From positions 118,551-182,550 of IMG/VR virus record IMGVR_UViG_3300023184_000028: 64,000 nucleotides of DNA. One strand, 5' to 3'. This document shows, in pieces, positions 8,326 through 25,910 of the stretch (its first letter is position 1; each line of letters opens with the position of its first letter). A model generated the notes under the pieces. The model was not told where the DNA came from and searched no databases. It saw only the letters and a list, made by a program, of their open reading frames with translations. Position numbers and translations under genes: made by a program. This DNA comes from a virus. Its lineage: Duplodnaviria > Heunggongvirae > Uroviricota > Caudoviricetes.

Positions 8326-9494
8326 TGAACGAAGATTATTACTATATAAAAATATCCCATGAAAATGTATTAAATGACATTTTTCCTGAACCGTATACCG
8401 CATATACGTATGTAATAACGGGTATAACAGGAACTTGTTGTTATATATCATCAATATCAAGTGACACGGTTTATGTTACGGGACTAACCTACGTTTATTC
8501 GTCTATGACTGATATATTAAGTGGAGGTACTAATGGTGATTCTTTATTGACAGGATTAACAATCCCAATACTGTTTAGAGAGACAGCTGTGGATATGGGA
8601 TACTATTCTGTTTTTGATGGGGCGATTATGCAGGCAGATGTAGTTAAAAACTTTGTCTTTTCAGCAACAACATCATTACCTAAAAGATATTATTTTTATA
8701 ATACGTCAGAAACACAGTTGAGAACCTTTTTACAACTATCCACATATTCAGTTGATTGGGGTGACTCCTCACCGATACAAACAATTACAACCACATCACC
8801 AAATTTTATTTATCATGATTACATAAATAATGGTAGTTATTTAATTACATTAATACAGAATACACCTTGGGGAAGAAATACTGTAAAGAAAACAGTAGTG
8901 GTTCCGTTTACAGGAACAACAATTCAAAACCCTAATGGTTCTGCATACTTTACTCCGAATATAGGGTCTTGGTCTGCAACATCAATATCGTATGATTTTA
9001 TATTCTCAGGTGACTCGGATAATCATATTTCGGCACAAACATCAAATAATTATGTTTCCGTTCCATTTTCAATCAGTGGATATACAACATCAAGAATAAA
9101 TGAATTATCTCAATATGGGGTAACAAAATATCCTTTATATGTCCCAACAATAAAAAATGGACAACAATTTGGAGTCATAACAACAATGAGTTCAAGTTAT
9201 ACAGGATATACTATAGAGGGTGTTCAGTATTTAGATTTTCCTGATAAAACGACGATATATGTTTTTGATAGTTCTGGATTAACATCTGATTGGATGGTTC
9301 AATCTGCAATAACAAAAAATGAATCTCTTATGAATATAGTTAATGACCCTGAAGTACAATCAGATGTTTTTGTAGAAAGAGGTAAGAATAGCGCATTGGA
9401 AAGAGTTGAAAGATTAGGTGAGATTGATAATATTGGGGATTTAGAAAACTATGGATACGGATTTTTTAATTTTGTTAATCAAAGTAATTTTTAA
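8325..9494 (+). CDS. Virion structural protein (389 aa)
   Basis: ORF; start overlaps previous stop (ATGA-type junction). Confidence 0.65.
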   Translation: MNEDYYYIKISHENVLNDIFPEPYTAYTYVITGITGTCCYISSISSDTVYVTGLTYVYSSMTDILSGGTNGDSLLTGLTIPILFRETAVDMGYYSVFDGAIMQADVVKNFVFSATTSLPKRYYFYNTSETQLRTFLQLSTYSVDWGDSSPIQTITTTSPNFIYHDYINNGSYLITLIQNTPWGRNTVKKTVVVPFTGTTIQNPNGSAYFTPNIGSWSATSISYDFIFSGDSDNHISAQTSNNYVSVPFSISGYTTSRINELSQYGVTKYPLYVPTIKNGQQFGVITTMSSSYTGYTIEGVQYLDFPDKTTIYVFDSSGLTSDWMVQSAITKNESLMNIVNDPEVQSDVFVERGKNSALERVERLGEIDNIGDLENYGYGFFNFVNQSNF

Positions 9495-9506
9495 AAAAGA
9501 GTAATA

Positions 9507-9518
9507 AACTATTTATTA
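9507..9518 (+). promoter_or_regulatory. AACTATTTATTA motif, second copy
   Basis: See 482-493. Confidence 0.3.
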
Positions 9519-9532
9519 AATAAAAGAATAAA

Positions 9533-10441
9533 ATGGCAATAGGAACCTACGGAACAATAAGACCTTCTGACGTATCACCTGAAGATGTTGAAATAATATT
9601 AAATTATACTCCTTCTAGGGATGTTACAGATAATTTTATATTAAAAAAGTTAGATACGTTAAATATATTGAGGCCATATTATAATAATAGTAATACTGGC
9701 GGTAATGCCAATATTGAAATATTAGGTGGTCTTTATAATTTAAGATTACCGGCAAATGAGTTTAATAAAATTGGTATTTACACTTTATATGTTAAGCCCG
9801 CTCAAATAAGAACGGAAATTACTGATTGTGGTGTATTATCGGCGCTACCTAACGTTAAAGGTATTGTAATTGATTTAAATAATGTACCGACACAATATAG
9901 AAATAAATTTGTATCACAAGGACTTGTTGGATTTAGGGTTGAATACTTAAATAGTGACGGTACTAAAATACCTAACTTTTTTAGAATAGTAACTTCTAAC
10001 TTTTTTTGTGAACCTGTTTTACAAAATTTAACAAATACATCTCAAAAGGCAATTAGATATAGATATGTTGATGCGGTCACAAATTTAATATTTTGTACAT
10101 TAACACCATCATCATCGCCGACAAACAAACCAAATGCAACTCCATTTATAGGACAACCCGCACAAAAGATAATAATAACTAATACTTTTTTTAATCCAAT
10201 TACGATAGATATTGAAATTGTTGAACACGATATATCAACATTAGCGTTGGCTTTGTATGGTAATCAAACTAAATCAATGCAAGATGGTATATATACTATT
10301 TATGACTCAAATAATAATATCTACAAACAATATAACTTGTATGAAATTAGAGACCAATCTAATTCTTTGTTATATGAGGTTAGACAAGACAGAGGAAATA
10401 ATATAGATTATAGTAAAAACTTTACAAACATAACTCAATAA
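9533..10441 (+). CDS. Virion structural protein (302 aa)
   Basis: ORF preceded by AACTATTTATTA motif (9507-9518). Confidence 0.65.
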   Translation: MAIGTYGTIRPSDVSPEDVEIILNYTPSRDVTDNFILKKLDTLNILRPYYNNSNTGGNANIEILGGLYNLRLPANEFNKIGIYTLYVKPAQIRTEITDCGVLSALPNVKGIVIDLNNVPTQYRNKFVSQGLVGFRVEYLNSDGTKIPNFFRIVTSNFFCEPVLQNLTNTSQKAIRYRYVDAVTNLIFCTLTPSSSPTNKPNATPFIGQPAQKIIITNTFFNPITIDIEIVEHDISTLALALYGNQTKSMQDGIYTIYDSNNNIYKQYNLYEIRDQSNSLLYEVRQDRGNNIDYSKNFTNITQ

Positions 10442-13392
10442 TGGGTAAAACGATTATTAAATATCCTGACGGTGCTAATGGTAGACCTTTTTCAGATGAT
10501 TTAGTTGGATTTCAATTAGTCCAAGGAGGTGGTTTAACGCAAGGTAATTTTCAATTCACAACAACTATAACAGAAAAAGTTAATAGAGAGTTTAATATTG
10601 GTTCTTTTTCTGAACCAATTACTTTAGACACATTAAATGTTTCTAATATTTTAGAATCTAAAGCTATTATTGCTAAAGAATTTAGAGTTTATCCTAATTT
10701 TGATTTAAGTGAGATAACTAAATTTAATATTTATGGTCCGTTATCTAAAAGAATGTCAACATCAGTTCAAAAAATTATAAATTATTTTCCTTCGGCATTA
10801 GAAGTATATAATCTTAATTCTGATTTTACTACTGACAATACCGCGATTGATATTGATTATGATAATATTGAAGATGTTACTTCATTTAAAATTGATGTAA
10901 CTAAATTGACAAATCCTTTTGGAATTGATTATTCGGTTAATGCGACTAGAAATATTTCATTAAAAGAATTTGAGGTATCTCCATTAAGAAATTTAACTGT
11001 TGAGTATAATAAGTTTTCTTTATTTTTAGGAGATAAAGAATTCCCTATTTATCATTTTACTCCATCAGATAGTTTATATTCAGGTTTTATAGAAATTATT
11101 GTTTTTGGTCAACCATTTTCAGGAAAAATAGAAACAACCGAAACTTTAGTTATTAGACCAAATACTTTTTATGCAGATAAATCGTTAATAGAACCGTTTG
11201 ATGAGGTTGAAAAGTTTTTATTAAATAGAATGATTGTCCCTAAATACACGGCAACATTCCAGGTACCAAAACAATCGGATGATGGTGTTTTATTTACTAG
11301 TTTTGTTAATGTAACTTGGCCAATAGATGGGATTTGGAATTTAGATATTAGGACAAGATTATTTGATAATTATTTAAATTCTTTAAATGAGATTGCGGTT
11401 GCATTTGATGAATCAAAAACAAATTTAATAACAAGATTTTTAACTACTGAATCGTTTAAAGAATTTGATACTGAAGACCAAAGGGTTCAAAAAATATTAA
11501 GTATCTATGGTAGAAGTTTTGATGAGGTTAAAAAGTTTATAGATGGATTGGCTTATATGAATTCTGTAAATTATACGGTTAAAAATGATATACCATCACA
11601 ATTACTTAAAAATTTGGCAGAAACAATTGGGTGGAAAATAAATGTTTCCCCAATTACTAATGAAAATTTCTTAGGCTCAGTTTTTGGTAATAATAGTAAA
11701 ATTGAATTTGAGGGATATTCTAGAGCGTCAACGCCAACAGAGTTAAATTATCAATTTTATAGAAATTTAATTTTAAATTCGGCTTATTTGTTTAAGTCAA
11801 AAGGTACGAGAAAGTCTATAGAATTTTTACTAAGACTTATTGGTGCTCCTGAGGCTTTAATAGAATTTAATGAAAATATATATATTGCAGGTCAGAAAAT
11901 TAACATGGCGGATTTTAATATGAGATATGCTCAAATATCTGGTGGTACATATGTTGAAGAGATACCCGTATTTGATACTACAACATTTACTATTTATGGT
12001 AATGTATATTCTGCTTTTACAACACAAACTACGATAACTGATGTTGATGTGACATTGGCGGATTTTCCTGTAGATTCTTATGGTTATCCGAAGTCGCCTG
12101 AAGATACTCAAGATTATTTCTTTCAGAAAGGGGCGGGATGGTTTGAACTAGTTAAAGACCACCAAAGTCCTCAAAAAATTAATTATACTAATAGTGTATT
12201 TACTGGGCAAAATTTTAATGTTCAAACTGAGTTTGAGCAATTTACTTATGGACAAAAATATTTGGATAGATATAGATATTTTCCATATTTGAATACAGGT
12301 TATAGACTTTTAAGAATACCCGATAATAAAAAAAGCTGGCCTGTGACAGACACAGGACTTAGAGTCGGTAATGGAGGCTCTAAATATGATGCTTATTATT
12401 TTGTTGATAATGAAAAATTTGTATTAAATGTTAAGAATATTGATTTATTTTTAAATCCTGCTCAAGGATTGGTGTATGATGTTTGGTATATGTCAAGAAA
12501 GTATGATTATCCAATACCTAGTACTGGTTTAACTTCCCCTTATCCACAACCAGGAGGAATTGATTCAACATTTATTAATCCACAACCAAATAAAAAATCG
12601 TTCTTTGAATTTGCCCAAACATTTTGGAATAACATGATAAATGTTAGAGATAGACAATTTAGTTCTGATGGTAAAACAAGTGGGTATTTAACATTACAGT
12701 CTATATTTTGGAATTATTTACAATCACAAGAAACTGTTGGAATACCAAACAATAATTTTAATTATCGTTCAATGATGGGTTATGTTAATGGATTGGGTGA
12801 TTATTGGATTAGATTGGTTGAACAAATGATACCAGCGACCACAATATGGTTAGCCGGAGTTAAGTATGAAAATTCTATATTTCATAGACAAAAATTCGTT
12901 TATAGAATTCAAAGGGGATGTGCAATATTGCCAGTACCTTGTGTACCTTGTACATTAAATGGGAATTTATTTTTATATAATTGTATTGATGAGACGATTG
13001 AATGTCCTATTTATCCTTGGGATGGAGGGTCATCAACAGTACAATCATTCCAAGATATATTAAATCAAACTGTAACAAATTATGTTACGTCTAATTCATT
13101 GACATGTGATTTAAATTCTTTAGTTACTGACTGGTATATTGATTTAAGATTGGATAGTACTGTTTTATTACAACAAAAATTCTTTACAGGATATGGAACA
13201 TTACAAACACCAACTAATTCTCAATGGAGCGGTGCAGTACAAACTTATGTGACAAATTTAACTGATGCTGACTTAACGTATTTCCTTAGTGGAAATACTT
13301 TGTATGTTTCTAATTCAGGATGCGAACCTAAATTTACAAATAAACAAATCCAATTAAACGTTGGATTGAATTTTACAATTAGTTGTAGTTAA
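10441..13392 (+). CDS. Large structural protein (983 aa) with Cys-rich C-terminal segment
   Basis: 3-kb ORF; CAILPVPCVPC...CIDETIECP cluster; ATGA overlaps with both neighbours. Confidence 0.7.
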   Translation: MGKTIIKYPDGANGRPFSDDLVGFQLVQGGGLTQGNFQFTTTITEKVNREFNIGSFSEPITLDTLNVSNILESKAIIAKEFRVYPNFDLSEITKFNIYGPLSKRMSTSVQKIINYFPSALEVYNLNSDFTTDNTAIDIDYDNIEDVTSFKIDVTKLTNPFGIDYSVNATRNISLKEFEVSPLRNLTVEYNKFSLFLGDKEFPIYHFTPSDSLYSGFIEIIVFGQPFSGKIETTETLVIRPNTFYADKSLIEPFDEVEKFLLNRMIVPKYTATFQVPKQSDDGVLFTSFVNVTWPIDGIWNLDIRTRLFDNYLNSLNEIAVAFDESKTNLITRFLTTESFKEFDTEDQRVQKILSIYGRSFDEVKKFIDGLAYMNSVNYTVKNDIPSQLLKNLAETIGWKINVSPITNENFLGSVFGNNSKIEFEGYSRASTPTELNYQFYRNLILNSAYLFKSKGTRKSIEFLLRLIGAPEALIEFNENIYIAGQKINMADFNMRYAQISGGTYVEEIPVFDTTTFTIYGNVYSAFTTQTTITDVDVTLADFPVDSYGYPKSPEDTQDYFFQKGAGWFELVKDHQSPQKINYTNSVFTGQNFNVQTEFEQFTYGQKYLDRYRYFPYLNTGYRLLRIPDNKKSWPVTDTGLRVGNGGSKYDAYYFVDNEKFVLNVKNIDLFLNPAQGLVYDVWYMSRKYDYPIPSTGLTSPYPQPGGIDSTFINPQPNKKSFFEFAQTFWNNMINVRDRQFSSDGKTSGYLTLQSIFWNYLQSQETVGIPNNNFNYRSMMGYVNGLGDYWIRLVEQMIPATTIWLAGVKYENSIFHRQKFVYRIQRGCAILPVPCVPCTLNGNLFLYNCIDETIECPIYPWDGGSSTVQSFQDILNQTVTNYVTSNSLTCDLNSLVTDWYIDLRLDSTVLLQQKFFTGYGTLQTPTNSQWSGAVQTYVTNLTDADLTYFLSGNTLYVSNSGCEPKFTNKQIQLNVGLNFTISCS

Positions 13393-16300
13393 TGCCTATT
13401 AATTATATTATAACAACAGTTACTGGTGATTGCCTAAACATAGGTACAGGTGCTTTATATATAGAACCAATTGATGGACAATCGCCATATATTATTGATT
13501 GGCAAATACCTAATTTAGGGACAGACGTTTCTTTTACATCATCAACTAGAACTGGTTTATCGGTAGGTACTTATCAAATATTAGTTACAGACTCTTCAGT
13601 TTCACCACAAGAACAACCGGTTTTATTAACCATATCTTCAGGAATTTGTTTAGAAACAAGTGTAGTAAATTCAACTTGTGGATTACCAAACGGGGTTTTA
13701 ACCGCAACCGCAACAACATCAGTTAATATAGTTGATTATTATTTATATAGTAATACTAATGGATATGTAACTTCAGGTACTTCCTCTGTCGGATTTTATC
13801 CTTTTGTTCAACTGTCTGCAGATACATATTATGTGGAGGCGATTGATGCTGGTGGATGTAGCGGACGTTCATCTACTAATGTTGTTTTGGATTCAGGACA
13901 GTTAGATTATGGGTTTTTTGTTGTTAATAATTCAAGATGTTCAGGTCCTGCTGGAAAAATATATATTACAGGTCAAACAGGAGTTTCACCATATACTTAT
14001 TTATGGAGTAATAATGAAACAACTTCATCTATTAGCGGTTTAACTGCGGGTGTTTATACTGTAACAGTACTTGATTCTGGAGGATGTTCTGTCACTAAAC
14101 AAGCAACAGTTATAGATGTTGAACCCCCAGGTATAACTAATTTATTACCTGTTTCTCCAAGTTGCTTTCAGGCAGACGGACAAATCACGGTTTATTTGAG
14201 TGGAGGAACTGCACCATTTTATTATGTTTTATCAAATGGGGATACAAAAATTGACTTTTCAAATAATACAACATTTACCGGACTATCATCAGGAATATAT
14301 AATGTAACGGTTACTGACGCAGGGTTATGTACCACATCAGGAACAATAACACTATCAAGCCCAAATGCATTTACATTTGTTGCTGCATCATCGGTTCCTT
14401 CTGTATGTGGAAGTAGTAATGGAATTATTAATGTGTCTGTTCAAGGGGGTTCAACTCCTTATACATATACATTAACAGATACTTCAGGTAATACTAGAGT
14501 TATTTCTATAAATTCTAATGCTCAATTTAATAACTTACCAACAGGTACATATCATATTAAAATAACAAACCCAAGTACTTGTAGTTATGAGACCGACATT
14601 ACCGTTATTAACGAAGATGCTTTTACAATTAGTACAACGTATATTGATACAACATGTGGGTTATCAAACGGTTCTATTAGAGTTGAGACAAGTGCTAACG
14701 GTACATACACCTATGAAATACCGGGACAATCAATTACCTTAAATTCTACTGCATATACGTTTAATAATTTATCAAGTGGATTATACGCAGTTTCAGTTAC
14801 TGATGTTAATGGTTGCAAACAAACAAAATCAGTTAGTATAAAAAGTAGTGACTTGGTACAGTTTAGTTTAATAGATACAAGTTGTGGTGGTACAGGTAAT
14901 GAGGGTACAATAACTGCGGTTATTACTAATGGAACCCCTCCATTTGCGATATCTTGGTCATCTAATGTTGGTTCTCAACATGGTATATATGTTACAGGAC
15001 TTACAGCTGGAACATATTCTGTAACAGTTACTGATAGTAATGACTGTAGTTTAACTAAAACAACTCAAATAATTTGTGGAACTTCAAATACGTCATATCA
15101 GATTTTCAATATTTGTGATGATATTTTTACAGAAAGACCTGGTACAAAAACAGGGTTTCCACAAATGTTAAATCAGGGTTATCAAGATTTAACCTCAGGT
15201 GAGACAAATTGTAAATTAACGTTGGCTCAATTTAATTTGTTATTAAATGTTGGTAGTTCGGCGTTCACTAGTAACTTTTTTGCTACAACATCTTTATCTG
15301 TATATCCTACAGACCAACAATATGTGGATGAATTAAATACTTTATTAAGTGGAGTTCCTGGTATTGGTTCAATAGTTCTAAATGCAAATACGAATTCAAT
15401 TAGTTTAAATACGGATTGTGCTAGAACACTATCTGCGGATACTGTTAGTGTTGCAATTAGAATTGATTATGACATTTGTTGTTATGGGGTACCATCACCG
15501 TCAGCTACGCCAACAGTTACACCAACTCCTACGATAACTCCAGAAAATACTCCAACACCAACAGTAACTATTACACCAACTATAACAGTAACACCTACTA
15601 TTACTCCGACACCAACAATTCCGTTAGAACCATTTATAATGTCCGCATATAGTTTAAGTTCTATAACAATAACAGCTTTAAATTCAAATGTTTATCCATA
15701 TGTTGTAGATTGGGGTGACGGTAATTCCGATATCTACGCACCAGGAAATCACTCTCCTAACCATACTTATAGTTCTTCATTCACTGGAATTATAACAATT
15801 AGTTCACAACATTTATCAGATATAGATTCTTTTAGTATAACTAGTACCTTAACAGGTAGTACAACCCCTCTAATTTCTATTAGCACATCAGAATACACAA
15901 AATTAAGTGGAGTATTAAATAGTTATTTCGGATATAAAGTTTTACTTGATGGATTAATTTCTCAAATACCAAGATTTATTACATATTTGGTAATATCATC
16001 ATCAAGCATAACTGGAAATACAACAGATTTACCATCAACATTAACAAATATTCAAATGTTTAATAATAATGATAATACAGTATTAAGTGGTAATACTTAT
16101 GGATTACCTGCAGGGTTAGAATATGTTTCAATTTATGATAATACTATTGGAGGTAACATAAGTGGAATACCTTCAGGTTTAACTTATTTAAATTTACTTG
16201 GTGATAACACGGTTAGTGGTGATATAGGTGGATTACCTTCAGGATTAGGTACTATGACAATATTTGGTAAAAACACATTAAGTGGAAATGTGTCATCATT

Positions 16301-16943
16301 ACCATCAGGTTTAACAACTTGTCAAATATCATCATTGGATGGTTATATAGGGGCTAAAAATACAATAAGTGGAAATGTTTCTGGATTACCGAGAGGACTA
16401 ACTAATATTTTATTTGGTGGTGATAATACTATTAGTGGTGACACTACAGGATTACCATCAGGATTAACTTATTGTAATATAACAGGTCAGAATACAATTG
16501 GTGGAGATACAAGTGGATTCCCAACGGGATTAAAAGATTTGTATTTAGTAGGTTCAGGTACAACCGCAGGAACATATATATCCGGAAATGTAACAGGATT
16601 ACCAATAGTATTGTCATCATGTACAATCACAGGATATAACACAATTGATGGTAGTTTCTCAGATTTTTCACCAAACTTAGTTTTTATTGCGATTGAAGGT
16701 AATAATACAATTACGGGATATACTTTTAGTCATGTTTGGCCAACAACAATGAGACAATTAACTGTTCTTGGGAATGCCACAGTGAGCACACCAAATATTA
16801 ACAATATTTTATCTGATTTAGCGACTTATTCAACAACTTGGATTGGTGCTGCCAAATTAATTAAATTAAAAGGAACTCAAACCAATCCTGGTGCGGTGGC
16901 AATATTAACGGGAAGAACTGTTACGGTTACAATAACACCGTAA
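13392..16943 (+). CDS. Tail-fibre/adhesin-like protein: multiple SprB-type repeats, Pro/Thr linker, C-terminal leucine-rich-like ~24-aa tandem repeats
   Basis: Repeated modules C..G..G.I.V..SGGT.PY.Y.W (e.g. SCFQADGQITVYLSGGTAPFYYVLSNG; VCGSSNGIINVSVQGGSTPYTYTLTD). PTVTPTPTITPENTPTPT linker. Repeats GLPSGLTYLNLLGDNTVSGDIGG. Confidence 0.8.
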   Translation: MPINYIITTVTGDCLNIGTGALYIEPIDGQSPYIIDWQIPNLGTDVSFTSSTRTGLSVGTYQILVTDSSVSPQEQPVLLTISSGICLETSVVNSTCGLPNGVLTATATTSVNIVDYYLYSNTNGYVTSGTSSVGFYPFVQLSADTYYVEAIDAGGCSGRSSTNVVLDSGQLDYGFFVVNNSRCSGPAGKIYITGQTGVSPYTYLWSNNETTSSISGLTAGVYTVTVLDSGGCSVTKQATVIDVEPPGITNLLPVSPSCFQADGQITVYLSGGTAPFYYVLSNGDTKIDFSNNTTFTGLSSGIYNVTVTDAGLCTTSGTITLSSPNAFTFVAASSVPSVCGSSNGIINVSVQGGSTPYTYTLTDTSGNTRVISINSNAQFNNLPTGTYHIKITNPSTCSYETDITVINEDAFTISTTYIDTTCGLSNGSIRVETSANGTYTYEIPGQSITLNSTAYTFNNLSSGLYAVSVTDVNGCKQTKSVSIKSSDLVQFSLIDTSCGGTGNEGTITAVITNGTPPFAISWSSNVGSQHGIYVTGLTAGTYSVTVTDSNDCSLTKTTQIICGTSNTSYQIFNICDDIFTERPGTKTGFPQMLNQGYQDLTSGETNCKLTLAQFNLLLNVGSSAFTSNFFATTSLSVYPTDQQYVDELNTLLSGVPGIGSIVLNANTNSISLNTDCARTLSADTVSVAIRIDYDICCYGVPSPSATPTVTPTPTITPENTPTPTVTITPTITVTPTITPTPTIPLEPFIMSAYSLSSITITALNSNVYPYVVDWGDGNSDIYAPGNHSPNHTYSSSFTGIITISSQHLSDIDSFSITSTLTGSTTPLISISTSEYTKLSGVLNSYFGYKVLLDGLISQIPRFITYLVISSSSITGNTTDLPSTLTNIQMFNNNDNTVLSGNTYGLPAGLEYVSIYDNTIGGNISGIPSGLTYLNLLGDNTVSGDIGGLPSGLGTMTIFGKNTLSGNVSSLPSGLTTCQISSLDGYIGAKNTISGNVSGLPRGLTNILFGGDNTISGDTTGLPSGLTYCNITGQNTIGGDTSGFPTGLKDLYLVGSGTTAGTYISGNVTGLPIVLSSCTITGYNTIDGSFSDFSPNLVFIAIEGNNTITGYTFSHVWPTTMRQLTVLGNATVSTPNINNILSDLATYSTTWIGAAKLIKLKGTQTNPGAVAILTGRTVTVTITP
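16020..16680 (+). repeat. Array of ~72-nt coding repeats (leucine-rich-like ~24-aa units) at the 3' end of the SprB-repeat fibre gene
   Basis: GLPSGLT....N(T)(IV)SG(ND) recurs about 8 times in the protein. Confidence 0.5.
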
Positions 16944-16944
16944 T

Positions 16945-17115
16945 TTATTTTTTATCTTTACTGATTTTGTTGACCTTCTCCATCAACTTTAGAGTATCTG
17001 TGTAGTTTTTTTCCAATCTTTTGATAGTTCTTTCGTCTGCGCATCTATCACATGCTGAATAGTAATCTTTTTCAGATTCTTCTACTAGTCTTTGTATTGT
17101 TTTAATTAGTTTCAT
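16945..17115 (-). CDS. Small hypothetical protein (56 aa, MKLIKTIQRLVEESEKDYYSACDRCADERTIKRLEKNYTDTLKLMEKVNKISKDKK)
   Basis: Minus-strand ORF found by eye between convergent/divergent plus genes; below the ORF-track size cutoff. Confidence 0.3.
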   Translation of the reverse strand: MKLIKTIQRLVEESEKDYYSACDRCADERTIKRLEKNYTDTLKLMEKVNKISKDKK

Positions 17116-17187
17116 ATGTATATAAATATATCCAAATTTGTTCTATTTAAAAAAAGATATAAATCCTTATAATTATTTAAAAAAGAA

Positions 17188-18165
17188 ATGTCAGAATTGT
17201 TATTTGTTACTGCACAACCAGATGTCCCTTATTTTCATTGGCAATGTGAAGTATATTGTCATAATTTTGTTGAGAAAGGTATAAAACCATCTCAAATACA
17301 TATTATATTAGGTATGTTTAATGGCGGTACAGTACCATCAGAAAACGGGTTAAAGTTAAGAGAAAAAGGTTATAATGTCCATTTTTATAGTGATGAAAGA
17401 GATAAGAGACATTACATACCTAGTATTAAGCCATACTTAATTTCTAAATGGTTAGAAGAATTTCCTGAAAATGGTGAATTGTTTTTTCTGCATGATGCAG
17501 ATATTATACTGAGAGAGTTACCTGATTTAGAAAAGTATTTAACAGACGATGTCTGTTATATGGCGGATACCAAGGGATATATAGGTCATGATTATATTAT
17601 GAGTTGTTGTCAAAGATATGAATCGGAACACCCAACATCTGAGAAAAATCAATTAATGCAGGAGATGTGTGACATTGTTGGAATAAATATTGAATGTTTA
17701 AAGAACAATCAAGAAAGTTCTGGAGGGGGACAATATATTATTAAAAAAACCACATCAAAAAATTGGTATGACATATACAATGATTCCAACAATTTGTACG
17801 ACCAGATGCATAATTATCAAAAAAGATTTCCAATAAATCATGGGCAAATACAATTTTGGACGGCTGAGATGTGGTCGTTACTTTGGAACTTGTGGTGTTT
17901 AGAAAAAGATACAAAAATTATAAATGAATTAAATTTTTGTTGGGCGACAGATAGTGTTGATAATTATGAAAAAAAATATATACTCCATATGGCTGGGGTA
18001 TTAGACGGAATGAAAACAACTAAATTTTATAAAGGTGATTATATTAACTCAAGCCCATTAGAAAAATTAAAAGAAAATGAAAACTATTTTGATTTTGTTG
18101 ATGAGAATAGTGCAACAATAAAATATGTTGAAGTTATGAAATCATTAGTTAAAAAAAACAAATAA
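17188..18165 (+). CDS. Hypothetical protein (325 aa), possible glycosyltransferase-like (FLHDADII DxD-type motif)
   Basis: ORF; the DxD motif is the only weak functional hint. Confidence 0.55.
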   Translation: MSELLFVTAQPDVPYFHWQCEVYCHNFVEKGIKPSQIHIILGMFNGGTVPSENGLKLREKGYNVHFYSDERDKRHYIPSIKPYLISKWLEEFPENGELFFLHDADIILRELPDLEKYLTDDVCYMADTKGYIGHDYIMSCCQRYESEHPTSEKNQLMQEMCDIVGINIECLKNNQESSGGGQYIIKKTTSKNWYDIYNDSNNLYDQMHNYQKRFPINHGQIQFWTAEMWSLLWNLWCLEKDTKIINELNFCWATDSVDNYEKKYILHMAGVLDGMKTTKFYKGDYINSSPLEKLKENENYFDFVDENSATIKYVEVMKSLVKKNK

Positions 18166-18181
18166 TTGATTATTTATAGAT

Positions 18182-19537
18182 ATGGCTTGTAATGCAATAG
18201 TTTTATCATCAGGGGCAACATTTAATGAATCGGTAACATCTTCTACGTTCACTACGTATTATATGGATACTAGCACTTTTGATGTAGGAACTACTTTATT
18301 TTATGGTACACCTTGTGTACTTTCAGTACCGGGAACACCGGGAAATGAAGTTGCGGATGGGTATTATTATTATACAGGAGGAACATCACCTACTGTTGGA
18401 TATGTTTATAGAGATATTTATGGCGACGGGTATGTTTATTATACCCAAGCAATAACAAGTTTTGAAGATTGTTGTGACTCAAGAAATGTGTTTAATGTTG
18501 CTCATGATACGGGCACATTTAATTTAGGTGAAATATATTATTTACAAACAACCTCATTCACTGGATGTGCGACTGTAGTAACTTATGATATTTTACAACC
18601 AATTTATGTTTCAACATTAAGTACTGGAAGTTATGATGGATGTACAAATTGTTTAACCGGCAACTCATTAAGTTGTAGCGGAACAACACCCACACCTACA
18701 CCAACAAAAACACCTACAAATACTCCAACACCAACAAAAACACCTACAAATACTCCAACACCAACAAAAACACCTGCAATAACTCCAACACCTAGCTCAA
18801 CACCGGCCTATCCTGGGTTATGTCCAATTGCCGAATATTGTTTAGATACGGGTGGAATTTATGCTTATGATGGAACGTTTTATCATGTTGGGACTTATCT
18901 TTCACATGACTACTACGTTGGAAATGGAATATCAACAGGTTATTTATTTTTTGATGGTATAAAGTGGTGTTTGTCAGATACATTAGGTGGAGATTGTATT
19001 CTTTTTGGTAGAATACCTTGTGCAACTGAGTGTCCTGATATAAATGGATTAACTCCTGGTTCTTGTGCAACAACAACTACAACAACAAATCCTTGTGATA
19101 TTGTTGATTTTGATGCGATATTTAATTGTGATGTTGAGTTTTCACCATCACAAACGCCAACACCTACACAAACTCCGTCACCAACTCCGTCACCAACACC
19201 TGGATTATCACCTACACCAACGCCTACCGTTACGCCTACAACAGGATTATCACCAACGCCTACACCTACACCAACAATTACACCAACTAAAACTGTAACA
19301 CCAACACCAGGATTATCACCGACTACAACGCCAACAACAACTCCAACAATTACACCAACAACAACACAACTTTGTTATGGTACTAGTATGACATTAAGTT
19401 CAACTACGTTACCAGGTGAAAGTCCCACACCTACACCAACACCAAGTGCAACACCATTAAATAGAGATAAATGTTTTACTGGTGACGCAACATTTGATAT
19501 AATGAATGAAGATTTTACTTGTTTACCAATAATATAA
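18182..19537 (+). CDS. Fibre-like protein with conserved MACN N-terminal domain and several Pro/Thr linkers (451 aa)
   Basis: N-terminus alignable with the 19769 gene product (MACN..I.L....YY.D....LG..L...TPC....A..GYY). TPTPTKTPTN x3 linker. Confidence 0.7.
   Translation: MACNAIVLSSGATFNESVTSSTFTTYYMDTSTFDVGTTLFYGTPCVLSVPGTPGNEVADGYYYYTGGTSPTVGYVYRDIYGDGYVYYTQAITSFEDCCDSRNVFNVAHDTGTFNLGEIYYLQTTSFTGCATVVTYDILQPIYVSTLSTGSYDGCTNCLTGNSLSCSGTTPTPTPTKTPTNTPTPTKTPTNTPTPTKTPAITPTPSSTPAYPGLCPIAEYCLDTGGIYAYDGTFYHVGTYLSHDYYVGNGISTGYLFFDGIKWCLSDTLGGDCILFGRIPCATECPDINGLTPGSCATTTTTTNPCDIVDFDAIFNCDVEFSPSQTPTPTQTPSPTPSPTPGLSPTPTPTVTPTTGLSPTPTPTPTITPTKTVTPTPGLSPTTTPTTTPTITPTTTQLCYGTSMTLSSTTLPGESPTPTPTPSATPLNRDKCFTGDATFDIMNEDFTCLPII
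18701..18790 (+). repeat. 30-nt tandem repeat x3 (CCAACAAAAACACCTACAAATACTCCAACA) encoding a TPTPTKTPTN linker
   Basis: Units 18701-18730 and 18731-18760 are identical; the third has 3 substitutions. Confidence 0.85.
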
Positions 19538-19541
19538 AATT

Positions 19542-19763
19542 ATGATAACGAAACAAATAACGATAGATACATTAGTGGGCGTGGAGCCGTATTATGTGTA
19601 TTTATGTGATAATACTAATTTTTGTATGTATATTAATACGATATATAATTCAGATATTCCTTATCCGTTTTTGGTACCTAATAATTTTTTATCACAATCT
19701 CAAGTTACGGTGAAGGTAATTGATAGTAATGGATGTAATATAATAAACACGGTTAATATATAA
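19542..19763 (+). CDS. Small hypothetical protein (73 aa)
   Basis: ORF between two paralogous fibre genes. Confidence 0.4.
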   Translation: MITKQITIDTLVGVEPYYVYLCDNTNFCMYINTIYNSDIPYPFLVPNNFLSQSQVTVKVIDSNGCNIINTVNI

Positions 19764-19768
19764 AATAA

Positions 19769-22324
19769 ATGGCATGTAATCCTATATTATTATATTATTT
19801 TGGAATAAGTAGTGCTAATATTTGTACTCAAGTTTTTCAGGATAATACTCTGTATTATATTGACGGAGACCCTACAACATTAGGTAGTTATTTACATACA
19901 TCAACACCTTGTACAGGTGCAAATTTAGCAACTAGTGGTTATTATGCTTATATTGATAATGGAATTATTCATTATTTCAGTATAGATAGAAATGGTGCAT
20001 TAAACAAATTAGACCAGTGTAATAATTGTGCGGTCGGAAGCGTTAAAAATTTAACGCTAGTAACTTACACCGATTGTTGTGGAAATTATACGGAATTAAC
20101 ACCAACAGTTAATGACCAATTATTTGTCTATGACCCTAATTATCCTGTGACTGGTTTATATAGTTTTTATTCGGTGACTCCTAGAACTATATGTCCTTCA
20201 AATTCTCCAACACCAACACATACACCAACACCAACTTTAACGCCAACACCTACACCAACACCAAAATCAATATATGTTTCAGGGTGTTGCGACGGTAAAA
20301 TATATAGGTTATTATCTGGTATCAAACAACCAATAGGGAATGTTATAAGAGTGGCACCTTTTAATTTTTGTTATACGGTTATTACTCAACCAATTATATT
20401 ACCAACAAATACGTTAAATGATAATTTGGGTGTTTCAATAGTTGAAGAAGATTGTTATGACATAAGTTGTCAGCCATGTCCAAGTTCAACACCAACACCA
20501 ACACCTACTCAAACGCCGGGAAATACACCAACACCAACACCTGCACCTAATCTACCACCGATACCTGCTGCAGGTTCGGTTGGCAGTGAATGTAAAATTA
20601 TTACAATAGAAAACTTTGAGATAAGTTGTAGCGGTACTAATCCAACAACATATGCTTCTTTAGATGGTAGTTTAACTGCAATTGTATCAGGAGGAACCGC
20701 ACCTTATTATTATATTTGGAGTGGGCCAAATAGTAGTTATTATACTAGTAAAACAATAACGAATATACCTTCGGGTGATTATATTTTAACAGTATATGAT
20801 TATTTTAGAGATTTTACTGCAACAACTACTTGTACGATTACGGGACCTAAAGATTGTGAGTTTGGTGCATCGTATTTTGAGTTTTTACCTCCTAGTCCTT
20901 CACCAACGCCTACATTAACTCCTACGCCTGCAACATCAATACCTCTATGTGCGGTGTTATTTGTTAATAATATAGATGGTAAGGTTTATACTTACAATGT
21001 AGCGACAAATGCGTCAGTACTACTTACAATACCTTCACTTACTTTCTTCGCTGATGATATTGCGCATACCGCAAACAAACTTTGGATACCTTCAGGTTCT
21101 ACGCAATTCCTTGAGTGGGATATAACATTATCTCCATTTACTGCGGTATTTAATCGTGCAATACCATATCCTGTTGGATATCTGCCATCTTTTGGATTAG
21201 GTGCTATTGACGATACTACAATTTTGGCCGTAAATACATCAACAACACCACATAGTGTTGTTGAGATAGATGTTTCAGGTCCTAGTGCGGTTATGAATAC
21301 TCAGTTTTCATTACTTAGTAACAGAAGAGTAACGGGTGATTTCTTTAAGACAACTAATAACAAATTTATTGTATCGGTAAGAACAATAACACCGCCAGTT
21401 CAAAACTACGTAAATCAGTACGATTATATAACGCATTTACTTGATGTTGAAATACTTTTATCCTCGGTATTAACCAATGCCTTTGGTATATTTGAAGATA
21501 GTGGAAATATCTATTTAGGTAGAGGTACATCACAAAATGGTGATATATATAGAATAGACACTAATTATCCGTATTTAACAACATTTGTTAATAACAGTGG
21601 AATATATGTTGCTGGCGCTTCTCAGGTACCTAGTTGTTTAACGGCTGATTTTAGCCCTGCACCAACGCCAACCCCAACGGTTACGGTTACCTCAAGTAGT
21701 GGAATTATACCACCATCACCAAGTGTGACAAAAACACCTACAGTTACTCCTACTATTACAAAAACACCAACTGCTACACCAACAATGACACCAACTGTAA
21801 CAAGAAGCGGAATACCGGCGCCAGTATATAGTCAATCATATGAGGCTAATGTGTTTCGTTGTAGACCTACACCTCAATGTGGAATGGGATATACGATAAC
21901 GACAATTACGGTTCAAAATCCATATACTTTATCTTTAGGTAAATTCTATAGAAGTAGTGACCCATACGATACCAATGTATATGAGCCATATACTACAGTA
22001 TCAACGCCAGCGGCAGTTATTGTTAGTTACGGTTCTGAGACCACTAGTTGTAATTTAGCTTGTGCTGCTTTACCAACGTATAGATATTATTTAGCGGATA
22101 AATATAGTTGTTCTAATTGTACATTAGTAGAAAGTGGAGTGGAAGTGGCGGTTGCAAATTGGACATTAAATGTGGGTAAGTGGTATAGTAATACTCAGGG
22201 TGTTTTTTCATATTATATAACTTCCGGACCAATAACATCATCACCAGCAGGACAGATAATATTATTTGATTATACCATATCAAATAATTGCGCAGATGCT
22301 TGTGTTGCGGAACCACCACCATAA
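19769..22324 (+). CDS. Fibre-like protein (851 aa): MACN N-domain paralog, PT linkers, SprB-type repeat
   Basis: SCSGTNPTTYASLDGSLTAIVSGGTAPYYYIWSGPNSSYYTS matches the SprB repeat pattern. Multiple TPTPTPT linkers. Confidence 0.75.
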   Translation: MACNPILLYYFGISSANICTQVFQDNTLYYIDGDPTTLGSYLHTSTPCTGANLATSGYYAYIDNGIIHYFSIDRNGALNKLDQCNNCAVGSVKNLTLVTYTDCCGNYTELTPTVNDQLFVYDPNYPVTGLYSFYSVTPRTICPSNSPTPTHTPTPTLTPTPTPTPKSIYVSGCCDGKIYRLLSGIKQPIGNVIRVAPFNFCYTVITQPIILPTNTLNDNLGVSIVEEDCYDISCQPCPSSTPTPTPTQTPGNTPTPTPAPNLPPIPAAGSVGSECKIITIENFEISCSGTNPTTYASLDGSLTAIVSGGTAPYYYIWSGPNSSYYTSKTITNIPSGDYILTVYDYFRDFTATTTCTITGPKDCEFGASYFEFLPPSPSPTPTLTPTPATSIPLCAVLFVNNIDGKVYTYNVATNASVLLTIPSLTFFADDIAHTANKLWIPSGSTQFLEWDITLSPFTAVFNRAIPYPVGYLPSFGLGAIDDTTILAVNTSTTPHSVVEIDVSGPSAVMNTQFSLLSNRRVTGDFFKTTNNKFIVSVRTITPPVQNYVNQYDYITHLLDVEILLSSVLTNAFGIFEDSGNIYLGRGTSQNGDIYRIDTNYPYLTTFVNNSGIYVAGASQVPSCLTADFSPAPTPTPTVTVTSSSGIIPPSPSVTKTPTVTPTITKTPTATPTMTPTVTRSGIPAPVYSQSYEANVFRCRPTPQCGMGYTITTITVQNPYTLSLGKFYRSSDPYDTNVYEPYTTVSTPAAVIVSYGSETTSCNLACAALPTYRYYLADKYSCSNCTLVESGVEVAVANWTLNVGKWYSNTQGVFSYYITSGPITSSPAGQIILFDYTISNNCADACVAEPPP

Positions 22325-22365
22325 AATGTGTGTTAAAAAATGAGTATTAAAAAAAATAATAAAAA

Positions 22366-23682
22366 ATGAGTAGCTATTTTACTATATATATTAATTCAGG
22401 GACATCTCCAGGCCCATATAATGTTTATTATAACACTATTGGCTCAGGTAATATTGCAACGGTATATCCGACAGGGTTACCTGCAACTAATTTAACTTTA
22501 AATCAGCTACTGGTGGGAGTTACAGTTTATGCTCCTGTGGATATTCTTGATTTATATTTATATAATCAACTATGTGAAACTAATCAAAAGCTCCAAATAG
22601 CACCTAAACCAATAGTTTATCCTGAAATATGTATTACTGTTCAAAATAAAGAAGAATTAATAAATGAGCAATATCAGTTTTTATATAATTATAATACGGT
22701 TAATGGTAAACCAGAATATGAAACATTTGATGGTTATTTGTTAAATTGGAATACAAATGGATATTGGGAATTCATAACATACCCTGGTTCTGTTAGATTA
22801 CAATCAAATGATGCTGATAATATACCTGATAGTAATTGGAATGCTTTAGGACCCGGAGGAAGTTTATATATAATAACCGCTCAACAAGGATTTTGTTTTA
22901 CACTTAAAAATCCAAATAATTTAAATATTACATATAGTGACCCAACTTGTTATGGAAATACAAACGGTTCAATAAATGCGGTTGCGATTGGAGGTGCTGG
23001 TGGTTGGGTATATTCGTTGGATAATATTATGTATAACAATTCAGTAGGTATATTTACATCGTTAGGTTCAGGACAATATACAGTATACGCTAAAGATTTA
23101 AGCGGAGATGTGATTAGTCAAACAGTTACATTAACCGCACAACCAGTTAATAATTTTACAATAACTGGTGTTAGAAGTGTTACAAACTTACCTACTGTTG
23201 GGAACATGAATTATTATTTAGTAACAATAAATTATGATACATCACAAATACCTACGGGAGGGGTTGTATTTGATTATGAGATGGTTTATAATTTATCATA
23301 CACTGGACCTGGGTCGGCAATTTTTGATACCACACAACATTATTTAACTATAAATGGAAATCCATTGGTAATTAATTCTGCATTTACAAACACATTGACC
23401 GCTACAACAGTATCATCTTGTAATCCTATATATAGTCAATATGACGGTTCTAATGGTTATGTTTCAACAGGAATTAGTTTATTAAATGGTGACGTATTTA
23501 CTGCTAATATTATTTATGGTATTGATACAAAAACAAATGGTGTTTTTGATGGGGTATGTTATACTAAAAGTTCTGTTATACTTAATCTAATCTTGGGTAA
23601 TGTTAAACTTTATTGTGATTGTTGTAATATAAACAATACGATAATTAATATTTCAGAACCAATACAAATTTACCAACCTTAA
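22366..23682 (+). CDS. Structural protein with SprB-type repeat (438 aa)
   Basis: DPTCYGNTNGSINAVAIGGAGGWVYSLDN...GSGQYTVYAKDLSGD. Confidence 0.7.
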   Translation: MSSYFTIYINSGTSPGPYNVYYNTIGSGNIATVYPTGLPATNLTLNQLLVGVTVYAPVDILDLYLYNQLCETNQKLQIAPKPIVYPEICITVQNKEELINEQYQFLYNYNTVNGKPEYETFDGYLLNWNTNGYWEFITYPGSVRLQSNDADNIPDSNWNALGPGGSLYIITAQQGFCFTLKNPNNLNITYSDPTCYGNTNGSINAVAIGGAGGWVYSLDNIMYNNSVGIFTSLGSGQYTVYAKDLSGDVISQTVTLTAQPVNNFTITGVRSVTNLPTVGNMNYYLVTINYDTSQIPTGGVVFDYEMVYNLSYTGPGSAIFDTTQHYLTINGNPLVINSAFTNTLTATTVSSCNPIYSQYDGSNGYVSTGISLLNGDVFTANIIYGIDTKTNGVFDGVCYTKSSVILNLILGNVKLYCDCCNINNTIINISEPIQIYQP

Positions 23683-23690
23683 AATATTTA

Positions 23691-25910
23691 TTGATTATGG
23701 GTTATATTATTAAAAATACTTCGGCATTAGTTAACACTAGATTTACAGATGCGGGAAGAAGAAAATTATCACAAGGAAATCTAAATATAAGGTATTTCCA
23801 AGTCGGAGATAGCGAAGTTTTTTATAATAAAATATCGGGTTATAATCAATCTGATTGTTATGTTCTTCAACCACCTTATAACGCTCAAAATATAAGTCAA
23901 CAACCTCAAACCAATAAAGGTAATGTTAAATACCCTTATTATGTAAAAGGAAGTAGTGGTAATACTTATGGGATTGCAATTGAACAATCAGTGATATCTC
24001 CAATATATAACTCAGCGGGACTAAAAGGATTTTTTAGTGGTAGTCAATATCCTTGGTCAGTTCAGATAACTAGCGGATATACACTAAGTCCAAATTATAT
24101 AATGAATACTTGTAATTTCTGTAGTGATTCTAGTGTATATTTTGATAATAATCCTTGTACGTCTGAAACTTATACCCCCCGAATTGGTGATATTGCTATG
24201 ATTTATTTTAAGGGAGACGATAGTTGTGGTACGTTTAGTACCGATTTTCCTGTTTTTACATATAGAATACAAGATATTATTGGTAATATTTTATTTTTTG
24301 ATAGAAAAGTTCCTGATTTTCAGGGAATGAATAGTGGATTAATTGATTGTTGTGCTGACCATAGAATTTATATTTACCCGTCAGGAATGACGGTATTATA
24401 TGATACTAAAACACCGCTTGGGTATGTCCCACCAACAGTGTTAAATTTTGAGACAATTTGTTATTTGGGATATGGTGATGTTAATGTTTGGAATATGAAT
24501 ATTCCTTGGTCTGTAAGTCCTGCAGGGTTAATATCAACACTAAATGAGGATTATACTAAATTTGGTTCGGTTAATTATCTTGGGACAAAAGAATATTTGG
24601 GATATCAAGAAAGTACAGGGCAAACATTTTTTATTAGTAATACTTTAAGTGCTGAAACTACTGACACTTATTATTATAATTCTTATAGTGAAATAATTAA
24701 AGTTCAACCTGAAGACCAAAAGGCGATTGCTATTGTTCACTACACTAATAATTTAATTGATACAATATACGGCGAAAAATTCGCATTAGAACCATTTGAT
24801 ATAAAGGCTACTGACCAAACAGGTTTTGCAAGAAATTTTGAGGTTACAATACCAACACTTATGTGGCATAAGTCAAATACGGGATTAATGGGTGAAACAT
24901 TTTATGTTGACCCCAATGTAGGAACTGCTGATTTCTTTGATGTTAGATATATGCAATCCTCAAAAAATATGGATATGAATGACCCTGGTTTAAGATATTA
25001 CCATTTATGGGACACGTATCTTAATACTGATGGAATGCCGAGTAGAGTTGGTAAAGTTTTTCCTGACTTGAAAATGGTTGTGTTTGATGATGATGAGATT
25101 ATAGCGGCAATGTCTTATAAGGCAAATAGAAACTGGACATTACCAGCACCTAAACTATCTTTGATAGTACCAAACGCTTTAGATAATGTAAATGATGATT
25201 TTGGATTGTTGGGTAATGAAAATGAATATTTGTATTTGACATATAGATTTAATTCAAGTGCTTTTACAAATTCTTTACATTGTAATTATTATACAAAGAT
25301 ACAAGGGCCTCAAACTTGTTTTACAACACAAAGACAAGACGTTGCGGTTAAATTTGGAGGAGGATTTAATTTTATGAAGGAGTGTTGTTTCCAAGGGTAT
25401 AGTGCTAATGAATTTTATATATTAGCACAAGTTGTAACTGGTTCAACAACTCAACCAAATCCTGCGTCATGGAAAATTATTAATTTTACAGACCAAATGA
25501 GTGCGACAACAAGTAATGGATATATAACTTCAGACGGAATGACGGGTTCTACATTTATTGTTAGATATAATCAATATACTACAGCACCTACTTATAATTT
25601 GGATGATTATATTGATTTACCTTTACCGACAGGTGAAGAAAGTAAGTTAACTTTTGGTGATGAGTATTTCTTTTATGGTAATATTGAAACGGATATTGAG
25701 GCGACAATATATGAAATGAAATATTTGTGTAATCTGAGTTCCCAACAATTTACTAATAGTAGTAATCCAACTTGGATATCAGGTGCTACGTCATATATGA
25801 CTGAAGTAGGGTTGTTTGACGAAGACAAAGATTTACTTATTATAAGTAAATTCCAGTCACCTGTTTTAAGACAAGGAACACAACAAGTATCAATTAATAT
25901 TGACTTCTAA
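23691..25910 (+). CDS. Large virion structural protein (739 aa)
   Basis: Last long ORF of the structural block. Confidence 0.7.
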   Translation: MIMGYIIKNTSALVNTRFTDAGRRKLSQGNLNIRYFQVGDSEVFYNKISGYNQSDCYVLQPPYNAQNISQQPQTNKGNVKYPYYVKGSSGNTYGIAIEQSVISPIYNSAGLKGFFSGSQYPWSVQITSGYTLSPNYIMNTCNFCSDSSVYFDNNPCTSETYTPRIGDIAMIYFKGDDSCGTFSTDFPVFTYRIQDIIGNILFFDRKVPDFQGMNSGLIDCCADHRIYIYPSGMTVLYDTKTPLGYVPPTVLNFETICYLGYGDVNVWNMNIPWSVSPAGLISTLNEDYTKFGSVNYLGTKEYLGYQESTGQTFFISNTLSAETTDTYYYNSYSEIIKVQPEDQKAIAIVHYTNNLIDTIYGEKFALEPFDIKATDQTGFARNFEVTIPTLMWHKSNTGLMGETFYVDPNVGTADFFDVRYMQSSKNMDMNDPGLRYYHLWDTYLNTDGMPSRVGKVFPDLKMVVFDDDEIIAAMSYKANRNWTLPAPKLSLIVPNALDNVNDDFGLLGNENEYLYLTYRFNSSAFTNSLHCNYYTKIQGPQTCFTTQRQDVAVKFGGGFNFMKECCFQGYSANEFYILAQVVTGSTTQPNPASWKIINFTDQMSATTSNGYITSDGMTGSTFIVRYNQYTTAPTYNLDDYIDLPLPTGEESKLTFGDEYFFYGNIETDIEATIYEMKYLCNLSSQQFTNSSNPTWISGATSYMTEVGLFDEDKDLLIISKFQSPVLRQGTQQVSINIDF

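Follow-up and report, generated by a model that had tools for sequence, protein, structure and literature searches.

A candidate baseplate-associated adhesin with seven SprB-type modules and an apparently exchangeable leucine-rich repeat tip in an uncultured family of contractile-tailed phages

The stretch of DNA analysed here, hereafter the window, comprises 64,000 nucleotides (positions 118,551 to 182,550 of the IMG/VR virus record IMGVR_UViG_3300023184_000028, a member of the Caudoviricetes) and carries three genes whose products contain modules resembling the repeats of SprB, a gliding-motility adhesin of Bacteroidota. This raises the question of what such proteins do in a phage and from where their modules came. 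The original prediction, made from the sequence alone, proposed that SprB repeats, Pro/Thr (P/T) linkers and leucine-rich repeats (LRRs) had been captured from the surface adhesins of a Flavobacteriia-like host. Our analysis points to a different origin: protein 1, the first of the three, is probably an adhesin or fibre that is attached to the baseplate in a family of large contractile-tailed phages, abundant and uncultured; it carries a swappable LRR tip, for which the phage family would be the donor pool. The three open reading frames (ORFs) were found exactly where they had been placed, at 13392-16943 (protein 1, 1183 amino acids (aa)), 19769-22324 (protein 2, 851 aa) and 22366-23682 (protein 3, 438 aa); these and all other window coordinates given below refer to the plus strand.

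SprB-type modules and the knob of protein 1

Protein 1 matched the Pfam SprB repeat family PF13573 in four stretches with 60.6 bits (E=1.1e-16), above the gathering cutoff of 28 bits. A hidden Markov model (HMM) built from its seven ~80-aa modules, and scanned over all six-frame ORFs of the window, recovered each of the seven at 69-95 bits. Together these searches delimit seven tandem immunoglobulin (Ig)-like beta-sandwich modules at 13413-15104 (aa 8-571). Beyond protein 1, the module HMM found only protein 3, protein 2 and a 73-aa ORF, the next match being noise (E=0.16). Against PF13573, proteins 2 and 3 scored 19.1 and 25.2 bits, which is under the cutoff; each contains a single module that was recognised by the module HMM, at 20606-20854 in protein 2 (match at aa 296-345, E=1e-6) and embedded at 22924-23157 in protein 3 (match at aa ~190-260, E=6e-7), and that matched cellular SprB modules by BLAST at E~1e-12. 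An exhaustive search with protein 3 returned 2888 proteins at E<=1e-3, including giant multi-repeat proteins of up to 7302 aa that were matched up to 58 times each, and always via residues ~170-275 of protein 3 only. Because the module HMM, the BLAST matches to cellular modules and the exhaustive search agree, we consider the SprB pattern genuine in all three genes and no compositional artefact. The predicted SprB modules were thus recovered in every one of the three genes, as was their homology to the repeats of Bacteroidota adhesins, with the provision that the Pfam profile alone detects them above cutoff in protein 1 and stays below it for proteins 2 and 3.

The array is a fixed feature of the family. 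PF13573 was matched by 44 of 45 family members, and the number of modules is exactly seven in 18 orthologues, with an eighth in the C-terminal extension of one and two arrays clipped by contig ends. The phage homologues of protein 1 are collinear over their N-terminal ~700 aa, at 36-56% identity, and range in total length from 705 to 1819 aa.

Module 7, which was modelled as a beta-sandwich, is followed by a family-specific alpha/beta domain of ~125 aa (aa 572-700; 15105-15491), which we refer to as the knob. The knob is 62-77% identical among phage homologues, forms the C-terminal end of the minimal orthologues of 705-717 aa, and was modelled by AlphaFold2 (AF2) with a predicted local distance difference test score (pLDDT) of 81-93. 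No counterpart was found among the cellular SprB proteins compared, and a Pfam scan of the knob alone yielded nothing meaningful. Assignment of its fold by PDB match was rejected, since the search gave no confident match to the knob and only weak Ig-like, carbohydrate-binding module (CBM) or adhesin matches (E>=3e-3) driven by module 7. Module 7 and the knob together are matched by a 714-aa BFVD entry, A0A6J5LD72, named 'SprB repeat' from an uncultured Caudovirales phage (E=1e-19, 30% identity).

A C-terminal PKD-like and LRR cassette

Past the knob, a P/T linker of 43 aa (15498-15626) forms the left edge of a variable cassette. This opens with a PKD-like beta-sandwich (aa 746-820; 15627-15851) that bears the motif WGDG...HTY, the WGDG being invariant across the alignment, and whose strands were modelled at aa ~746-818 with a pLDDT of 85-93. 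Its likeness to PKD lies in this motif and in the predicted beta-sandwich only, as no Pfam PKD match (PF00801, PF18911) was obtained even at E<=1.

The remainder of the cassette is a predicted LRR solenoid with a C-terminal helix cap (15918-16826), made of ~11-13 rungs with units of 21-29 aa, mostly 22 aa, the consensus LPxGLxxLxLxGxNTISGxxxG, and a 66-nt period in the coding DNA. Pfam LRR_4 gave 13.9 bits, below its cutoff of 27, so that protein 1 itself stays under the gathering thresholds of LRR_4 and LRR_8; the orthologues P0011, P0012 and P0014 do carry both families. A phmmer search of the PDB matched the LRR domain of Salmonella SlrP (E=7e-8), and the NCBIfam SlrP model NF011897 aligned with its LRR part only (aa 853-980; 34 bits against a cutoff of 1113). 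The NEL E3 ligase domain was absent from protein 1 in the NCBIfam and Pfam profile scan, which places the protein outside the NEL (IpaH/SlrP) effectors. The AF2 model of aa 732-1183 (pLDDT 78.7, predicted template modelling score 0.74) shows a beta-sandwich, then ~12 beta rungs and a helix cap, and its Foldseek matches include BRI1, RGFR1, internalin A (InlA) and the FNIP repeats of CroV, all with probability 1.0. Given repeated LxxLxLxxN-type units in a curved modelled solenoid, as is characteristic of the superfamily, we regard the LRR as real; the predicted architecture of about eight repeats of 24 aa has to be replaced by ~11-13 units of mostly 22 aa.

The cassette is also the part of protein 1 that varies. 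We compared the window with L001, a relative in which the genes neighbouring protein 1 are 97-100% identical to those of the window. Between the two copies of protein 1, modules 1-5 share 98-100% identity, module 6 94%, module 7 88%, the knob 95% and the linker itself 96%; beyond the linker, the PKD-like domain shares 52% and the LRR 64-78%. In the DNA, 97% identity gives way to 58-65% at ~15,600, where the linker ends, and 97% is regained by 16,951. A PKD-like and LRR cassette of this kind was found at the extreme C-terminus of 133 proteins, mostly of 450-780 aa, whose N-termini are unrelated (FN3, FNIP or SprB) and in which P/T or poly-T linkers, or else a SprB module directly, stand before the cassette; one of them occupies the equivalent cassette position on a 236-kb phage contig. 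Since identity drops so sharply right after the P/T linker relative to the near-identical L001, the cassette fits a swappable tip that would be exchanged within the phage gene pool.

Almost all relatives of the LRR cassette are unnamed metagenomic or phage proteins. The only homologue with an organism name is a hypothetical protein of Epilithonimonas sp. GCA_041913745.1 (L115 8001-9590). Its chromosomal locus also encodes toxins of the ADP-ribosyltransferase and Tox-MPTase4 types, which suggests that such LRR modules serve in toxin or contact-dependent systems of bacteria as well.

P/T linkers as putative exchange points

The window contains nine P/T segments, all within the fibre region: one in protein 1, five in protein 2 and three in the product of the intervening gene g18182. 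None was found in protein 3 in the same scan of the window, so that the linkers are present as predicted in proteins 1 and 2, as well as in g18182, which had not been listed, and not in protein 3. They are encoded by dispersed low-complexity DNA of ACN-CCN type. Such a linker is present in 37 of 64 phage SprB homologues as against none of 56 cellular ones (107,414 aa in total), a distribution contrary to the proposal that the linkers copy the style of host surface proteins. In 31 of the 37 linker-bearing phage homologues the first linker begins at aa 699-720, just past the knob. P/T-linker DNA appears to act as a junction for domain exchange in phage adhesins.

Position in the baseplate cluster and phage family

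The window opens with the 3' end of a baseplate J (gp6-like) wedge gene (3-407), whose product shares 97% identity with the C-terminal 135 aa of L034:8064-9905. In that relative, the complete gene gave matches to Pfam Baseplate_J (31.8 bits against a cutoff of 21.1) and to phrog_219, and a gp25-like wedge gene (PF04965 GPW_gp25, 49.6 bits) lies just upstream of it in the same 97%-identical relative. Six tightly packed baseplate-cluster genes follow (506-13392; 1761, 582, 268, 389, 302 and 983 aa), with overlapping start and stop codons at three of their junctions, and the stop of the 983-aa gene overlaps the start codon of protein 1. The order of the six genes is kept in nearly all of 30 related IMG/VR loci, and the protein 1 gene is syntenic in every related IMG/VR locus that reaches that far. 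The six proteins gave no match to Pfam, PHROG or PDB sequences, including dedicated PDB searches with the 983-aa and 1761-aa proteins, and a PDB search with the 739-aa product of g23691, the last gene of the fibre region (23691-25910), was likewise without a match.

The family to which this phage belongs is represented in IMG/VR by at least 599 matching stretches, on contigs of up to 309 kb. Its nearest cultured relatives are Flavobacterium phage vB_FspM_immuto and Microcystis phage Mel-JY01, with ~27% identity for Baseplate J and 31-33% for the primase; an uncultured megaphage stands equally among the nearest relatives. The immuto genes at the equivalent positions carry the annotations tail fibre and tail spike, and the primase comes next, the same arrangement as in the window. 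The C-terminal ~75 aa of g23691 (25680-25910) also end four consecutive fibre-region proteins of Mel-JY01 (L113 ~30.9-37.9 kb) and one protein of immuto, and the 983-aa protein weakly matches a 1336-aa fibre-region protein of Mel-JY01. Because of the gp25-like and Baseplate_J genes upstream, the annotations in immuto and the domain shared by g23691 and Mel-JY01, proteins 1-3 are placed in the tail-fibre region of a contractile-tailed phage, and from this gene order we infer that they are present in the virion. The predicted assignment as structural or fibre genes is therefore upheld by their location downstream of gp25/gp6-type baseplate genes, and not by family membership, as proteins 1-3 matched no tail-fibre family of PHROG or Pfam.

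Searches of deposited phages gave little beyond this. When the SprB array was used in tblastn, two uncultured megaphages and, weakly, a Salmonella phage tail fibre (E=1e-4) were found; neither megablast nor tblastn, run with the region and with the 983-aa protein on 50,697 deposited phages, returned a match. A scan of the region found promoter-like sites at the frequency expected from shuffled sequence and no terminator at any gene boundary, a background-level result that is therefore uninformative on operon limits.

Two observations on the cluster itself are worth recording. The 1761-aa protein (506-5791) is 87% identical to its orthologue in L001, where the neighbouring genes are 97-100% identical, and at aa ~505-620 (~2018-2366) it contains a strongly hydrophobic stretch of ~100 aa that resembles several membrane-spanning segments, an unusual feature for a protein of a baseplate cluster. 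In L024 (9977-19465) and L027 (9980-19279), the most distant relatives (44-45% identity), the homologue of the 983-aa protein forms the N-terminus of an ORF of 3099-3162 aa, and a separate SprB-array gene was not detected in these two loci.

Origin of the modules and host of the phage

Each module of protein 1 is 54-72% identical to its positional orthologue in other phages, compared with 32-53% to the best cellular module, and any two modules of the array share only 22-37% identity. Because the positional orthologues exceed the cellular modules and the identity between modules is so low, the array is ancient in this phage lineage, and neither a recent capture nor the product of recent internal duplication. 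Single phage modules reach 47-53% identity to cellular SprB modules, and the cellular array homologues that carry an organism name are all from Bacteroidota (Chitinophagales, Saprospiraceae, Flavobacteriales, Crocinitomicaceae and others). The SprB-type modules share ancestry with the repeats of Bacteroidota gliding adhesins and have probably been inherited vertically in the phage lineage for long. Any transfer would therefore have been ancient, with its direction left unassigned by the comparison, and new modules seem to be drawn from within the phage family.

These data also bear on the original proposal of a direct capture of SprB/RemA-type repeats, linkers and LRRs from the current host, in which the domains would mark a Flavobacteriia-like Bacteroidota host. 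The exclusively Bacteroidota names of the cellular array homologues and the 47-53% identity of single modules are in its favour, as are the G+C content of the window (31%), a nearest cultured relative that infects Flavobacterium, and the ~640-kb megaphages, discussed below, as the other array-bearing deposited phages. It is at odds with an array whose modules keep their positional orthologues, and their number of seven, throughout the family, with P/T linkers that the cellular homologues lack, and with a knob, an LRR cassette and an insert of protein 2 (described below) for which no cellular adhesin source could be identified; the only named cellular homologue of the LRR comes from a toxin locus, and an equally close cultured relative infects the cyanobacterium Microcystis. 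Host capture is hence only weakly supported and, in our judgement, unlikely; a comparison with cellular SprB repeats shows homology, as had been expected, and not the closeness that a traceable transfer from host adhesins would call for.

As to the host, a G+C content of 31% falls within the range of Flavobacteriia. The only other deposited phages with such SprB arrays are two uncultured megaphages of ~640 kb, which have reportedly been predicted to infect Bacteroidetes. No tRNA genes were found in a scan, and a scan of genome contigs for a host gave a single match, to an Akkermansia metagenome-assembled genome, which was judged spurious and left no link to a genome assembly. The host phylum is most likely Bacteroidota. 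It is not pinned further, to Flavobacteriia-like bacteria as had been claimed, because an equally close relative infects Microcystis, because no tRNA or assembly link was found and because the homology is old. The host should accordingly not be inferred from domain type alone.

Putative function of protein 1 and alternative explanations

Protein 1 combines a location in the tail and baseplate module with a conserved N-terminal part and a variable C-terminal tip, two properties by which receptor-binding proteins are recognised. As a baseplate-attached adhesin, its N-terminal 700 aa, the seven-module Ig-like stalk and the knob, would form an arm of fixed length on the periphery of the baseplate, to which the P/T hinge would add reach and flexibility. 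The PKD-like and LRR tip would bind a ligand on the host surface and so set the host range, and new specificities could arise by swap or gain of whole domains at the low-complexity P/T-linker DNA.

Several points weigh against this reading. No known fibre-anchoring or trimerisation domain was found, and where classical fibres are trimers, Ig-like arrays and LRR solenoids usually occur as monomers. The incorporation of protein 1 into the virion is deduced from gene order alone, in a family without a cultured member, and the inversion of the downstream gene block in some relatives (see below) implies that proteins 2 and 3 may be transcribed apart from the baseplate operon. When the substitutions in the LRR were arranged by register (nine repeats, three sequences), they did not single out the concave face: the scaffold residues P2, G12, N, T and G are conserved, and variable positions lie in strand and loop alike. 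The divergence of the tip could reflect relaxed constraint instead of adaptation to a receptor.

Other functions can be envisaged for the same gene. Protein 1 might be a decoration-type, non-specific adhesin comparable to Hoc or to BAM-like proteins, which would raise the encounter rate by binding glycans on particles, exopolymers or capsules, and leave the role of true receptor-binding protein to, for example, g23691 or the 983-aa protein. On phage virions, Ig-like domains are commonly accessory carbohydrate binders, the fold search gave weak matches to CBMs and Ig-like adhesins, and the minimal orthologues of 705-717 aa, which have no C-terminal cassette, indicate that the tip is dispensable in some phages. 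A strict count of seven modules, tight synteny and a start codon overlapping the preceding stop suggest by comparison an integrated structural part, and the drop in identity is confined to the tip, which is typical of host-range determinants; we consider a decoration role unlikely, if the best placed of these alternatives. The proteins might also represent a distinct class of receptor-binding appendage, probably monomeric 'tentacles' in which a fixed stalk of seven SprB-type modules, mimicking the host gliding adhesin, is linked to an LRR tip by a P/T hinge. In F. johnsoniae, SprB and RemA are considered likely phage receptors (PMC9804748), and, speculatively, the SprB-type modules could engage host SprB/RemA filaments or their surface tracks, so that the phage would be carried along the motility machinery to the cell body while the LRR tip provides strain specificity; such a class is a long shot, less probable still than host capture. 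The same receptor role (PMC9804748), together with the ability of the cassette block to be inverted relative to the baseplate operon, would also suit proteins that are not part of the virion and are displayed or released during infection, where they alter host adhesion or motility or exclude superinfection by mimicking or masking the SprB receptor. By inspection, however, no N-terminal signal peptide is present, there is no C-terminal sorting domain of the type IX secretion system (T9SS), and the start of protein 1 overlaps the stop of the preceding baseplate-cluster gene, which makes a non-virion role very unlikely.

If protein 1 is indeed a baseplate-attached adhesin, this abundant family of environmental viromes, which has no cultured member and whose structural genes are almost all unannotated, gains a concrete candidate for its host-range determinant. 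Residues 746-1183 of protein 1 constitute a defined fragment that could be expressed and used to fish for the host.

Proteins 2 and 3 and the accessory cassette

Between protein 1 and g23691 lies an accessory cassette of five genes that would supply further adhesive or adaptor parts and be reshuffled at the linker DNA, reusing SprB modules in single copy, P/T linkers and small Cys-rich domains. It opens with g17188 (17188-18165), which encodes a conserved protein of 325 aa that matches phrog_4417 (E=4e-69), a family with no known function attached. Homologues of g17188 (33-38% identity) adjoin tail genes in phages of Enterococcus, Lactobacillus, Staphylococcus and Clostridium and in Chryseobacterium phage MA9V-3, and in the present family the gene is always the first of the variable cassette and moves with it when the block is inverted. 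Such an inversion was seen in L018, L028 and L030 (~15.5-23 kb), where the entire block, from g17188 via small SprB-module proteins and a g23691-like gene as far as RuvC, has the opposite orientation to the baseplate operon and was inverted as one piece; the cassette of these three loci encodes two small proteins (233-241 aa) with one SprB module each.

The next gene, g18182 (18182-19537), encodes a Cys-rich protein of 451 aa with the appearance of beads on a P/T string, in which the module-HMM scan found no SprB module. It begins, like protein 2, with 'MACN', and a docking domain shared by the two N-termini was considered and rejected (BLASTP E=0.88). Between g18182 and protein 2, the 73-aa ORF (19542-19763), which the original prediction did not list, encodes a degenerate stand-alone SprB-like module (G.EPYYVY ... 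VTVKVIDSNGC; module HMM E=4e-5) without the leading Cys.

Protein 2 consists of five globular domains besides its linkers. One of these is an insert of ~240 aa (aa ~391-631; ~20939-21661) that sits exactly between two P/T linkers and has no equivalent in the orthologue of the near-identical L001. Its homologues, 29 among 5.8 billion proteins, are all unnamed metagenomic, free-standing proteins of 187-431 aa, one of which was automatically named BamB-like by one source; the insert may accordingly be a beta-propeller, as this name suggests. One homologue adjoins primase and SbcCD genes resembling those of the window and is therefore taken to come from a related phage. Protein 3 is a member of a conserved family of ~440 aa. 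Separate Pfam searches with the insert, the N- and C-terminal domains of proteins 2 and 3, the PKD-like domain and the 73-aa ORF gave nothing meaningful.

Comparison with known adhesins and receptor-binding proteins

With the SprB/RemA gliding adhesins of F. johnsoniae and related Bacteroidota, the phage proteins have the ~80-aa Pfam SprB module in common, at up to 47-53% identity for single modules. They differ in carrying seven modules or one, not dozens, in P/T linkers that the cellular homologues lack, in the location of their genes inside a baseplate cluster, and in being without signal peptide or T9SS domain. The N-termini, by inspection, have no basic n-region and hydrophobic h-region, and neither a type A (TIGR04183) nor a type B sorting domain was found at any C-terminus, the only cross-match being internal (aa 344-394, in module 5). 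The phage proteins thus share the SprB/RemA repeat module yet fall outside that class of adhesins.

The closest precedent is the BACON array of crAss-like phages, in whose tail-associated proteins BACON domains occur in tandem and have been proposed to function in host binding (de Jonge et al. 2019, PMC6949934). There too, a domain typical of Bacteroidota, of surface or carbohydrate-binding type, is found in tandem, is characteristic of the phage lineage and is distinct from the bacterial copies (PMC6949934). The present array differs in its domain (SprB, PF13573), in its fixed number of seven and in the knob, P/T hinge and exchangeable LRR tip that come after it, and it belongs to large contractile-tailed phages of environmental metagenomes in contrast to gut podophages.

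The LRR tip has the 20-22-aa 'LPxxL...N' repeat in common with the LPX-type proteins SlrP, SspH1, IpaH and YopM, in agreement with the match to SlrP in sequence, and matches further LRR solenoids, such as internalins, plant receptor kinases and the FNIP repeats of CroV, in fold. Unlike the LPX-type effectors, it has no NEL ligase or effector domain and forms the C-terminal end of a putative phage structural protein, where it follows a PKD-like sandwich. A conserved N-terminus with an exchangeable C-terminal tip is well known from T4 gp37/gp38-type and lactococcal receptor-binding proteins. Protein 1 resembles such modular proteins in its syntenic, conserved N-terminus, hypervariable tip, sharp recombination boundary and adjacent variable cassette, and differs from them in having no trimeric beta-helix, coiled coil or known fibre domain, in a junction formed by a P/T linker and in a tip made of LRRs.

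Phage proteins named 'SprB repeat' are already present in UniProt and BFVD (A0A6J5LD72, A0A6J5LDA4 and A0A6J5MUM3) through automatic annotation only; A0A6J5LD72 is a minimal form of the same protein family, without the LRR tip. A literature search found no paper on these proteins, a single unrelated paper aside, and none describing an LRR receptor-binding protein of a phage. SprB-array proteins are hence in the databases under an automatic name, and both modular tips and phylum-typical domain arrays are known in kind.

Other genes of the window and its relatives

A second LRR-like protein is encoded at 52406-53797, far from the structural block and among replication and other non-structural genes; it matches phrog_6688 and, at aa 376-437, has sub-threshold matches to Pfam LRR_14 and LRR_13. 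The relative L034 encodes, upstream of its baseplate cluster, a tandem PAS protein (1439-2554, plus strand; PAS_3 82.7 bits, PAS_9 79 bits), a sensor-type domain that is unusual in a phage. The gene at 31527-32480 encodes a protein of the SPFH/Band 7 family (75.8 bits). Finally, the 319-aa protein encoded at 50350-51309 matches phrog_14336 (E=2e-66), has phage homologues annotated as DnaJ chaperones, and is common to the ~640-kb megaphages LR756502 and LR745206 and to the Prevotella Lak megaphages.

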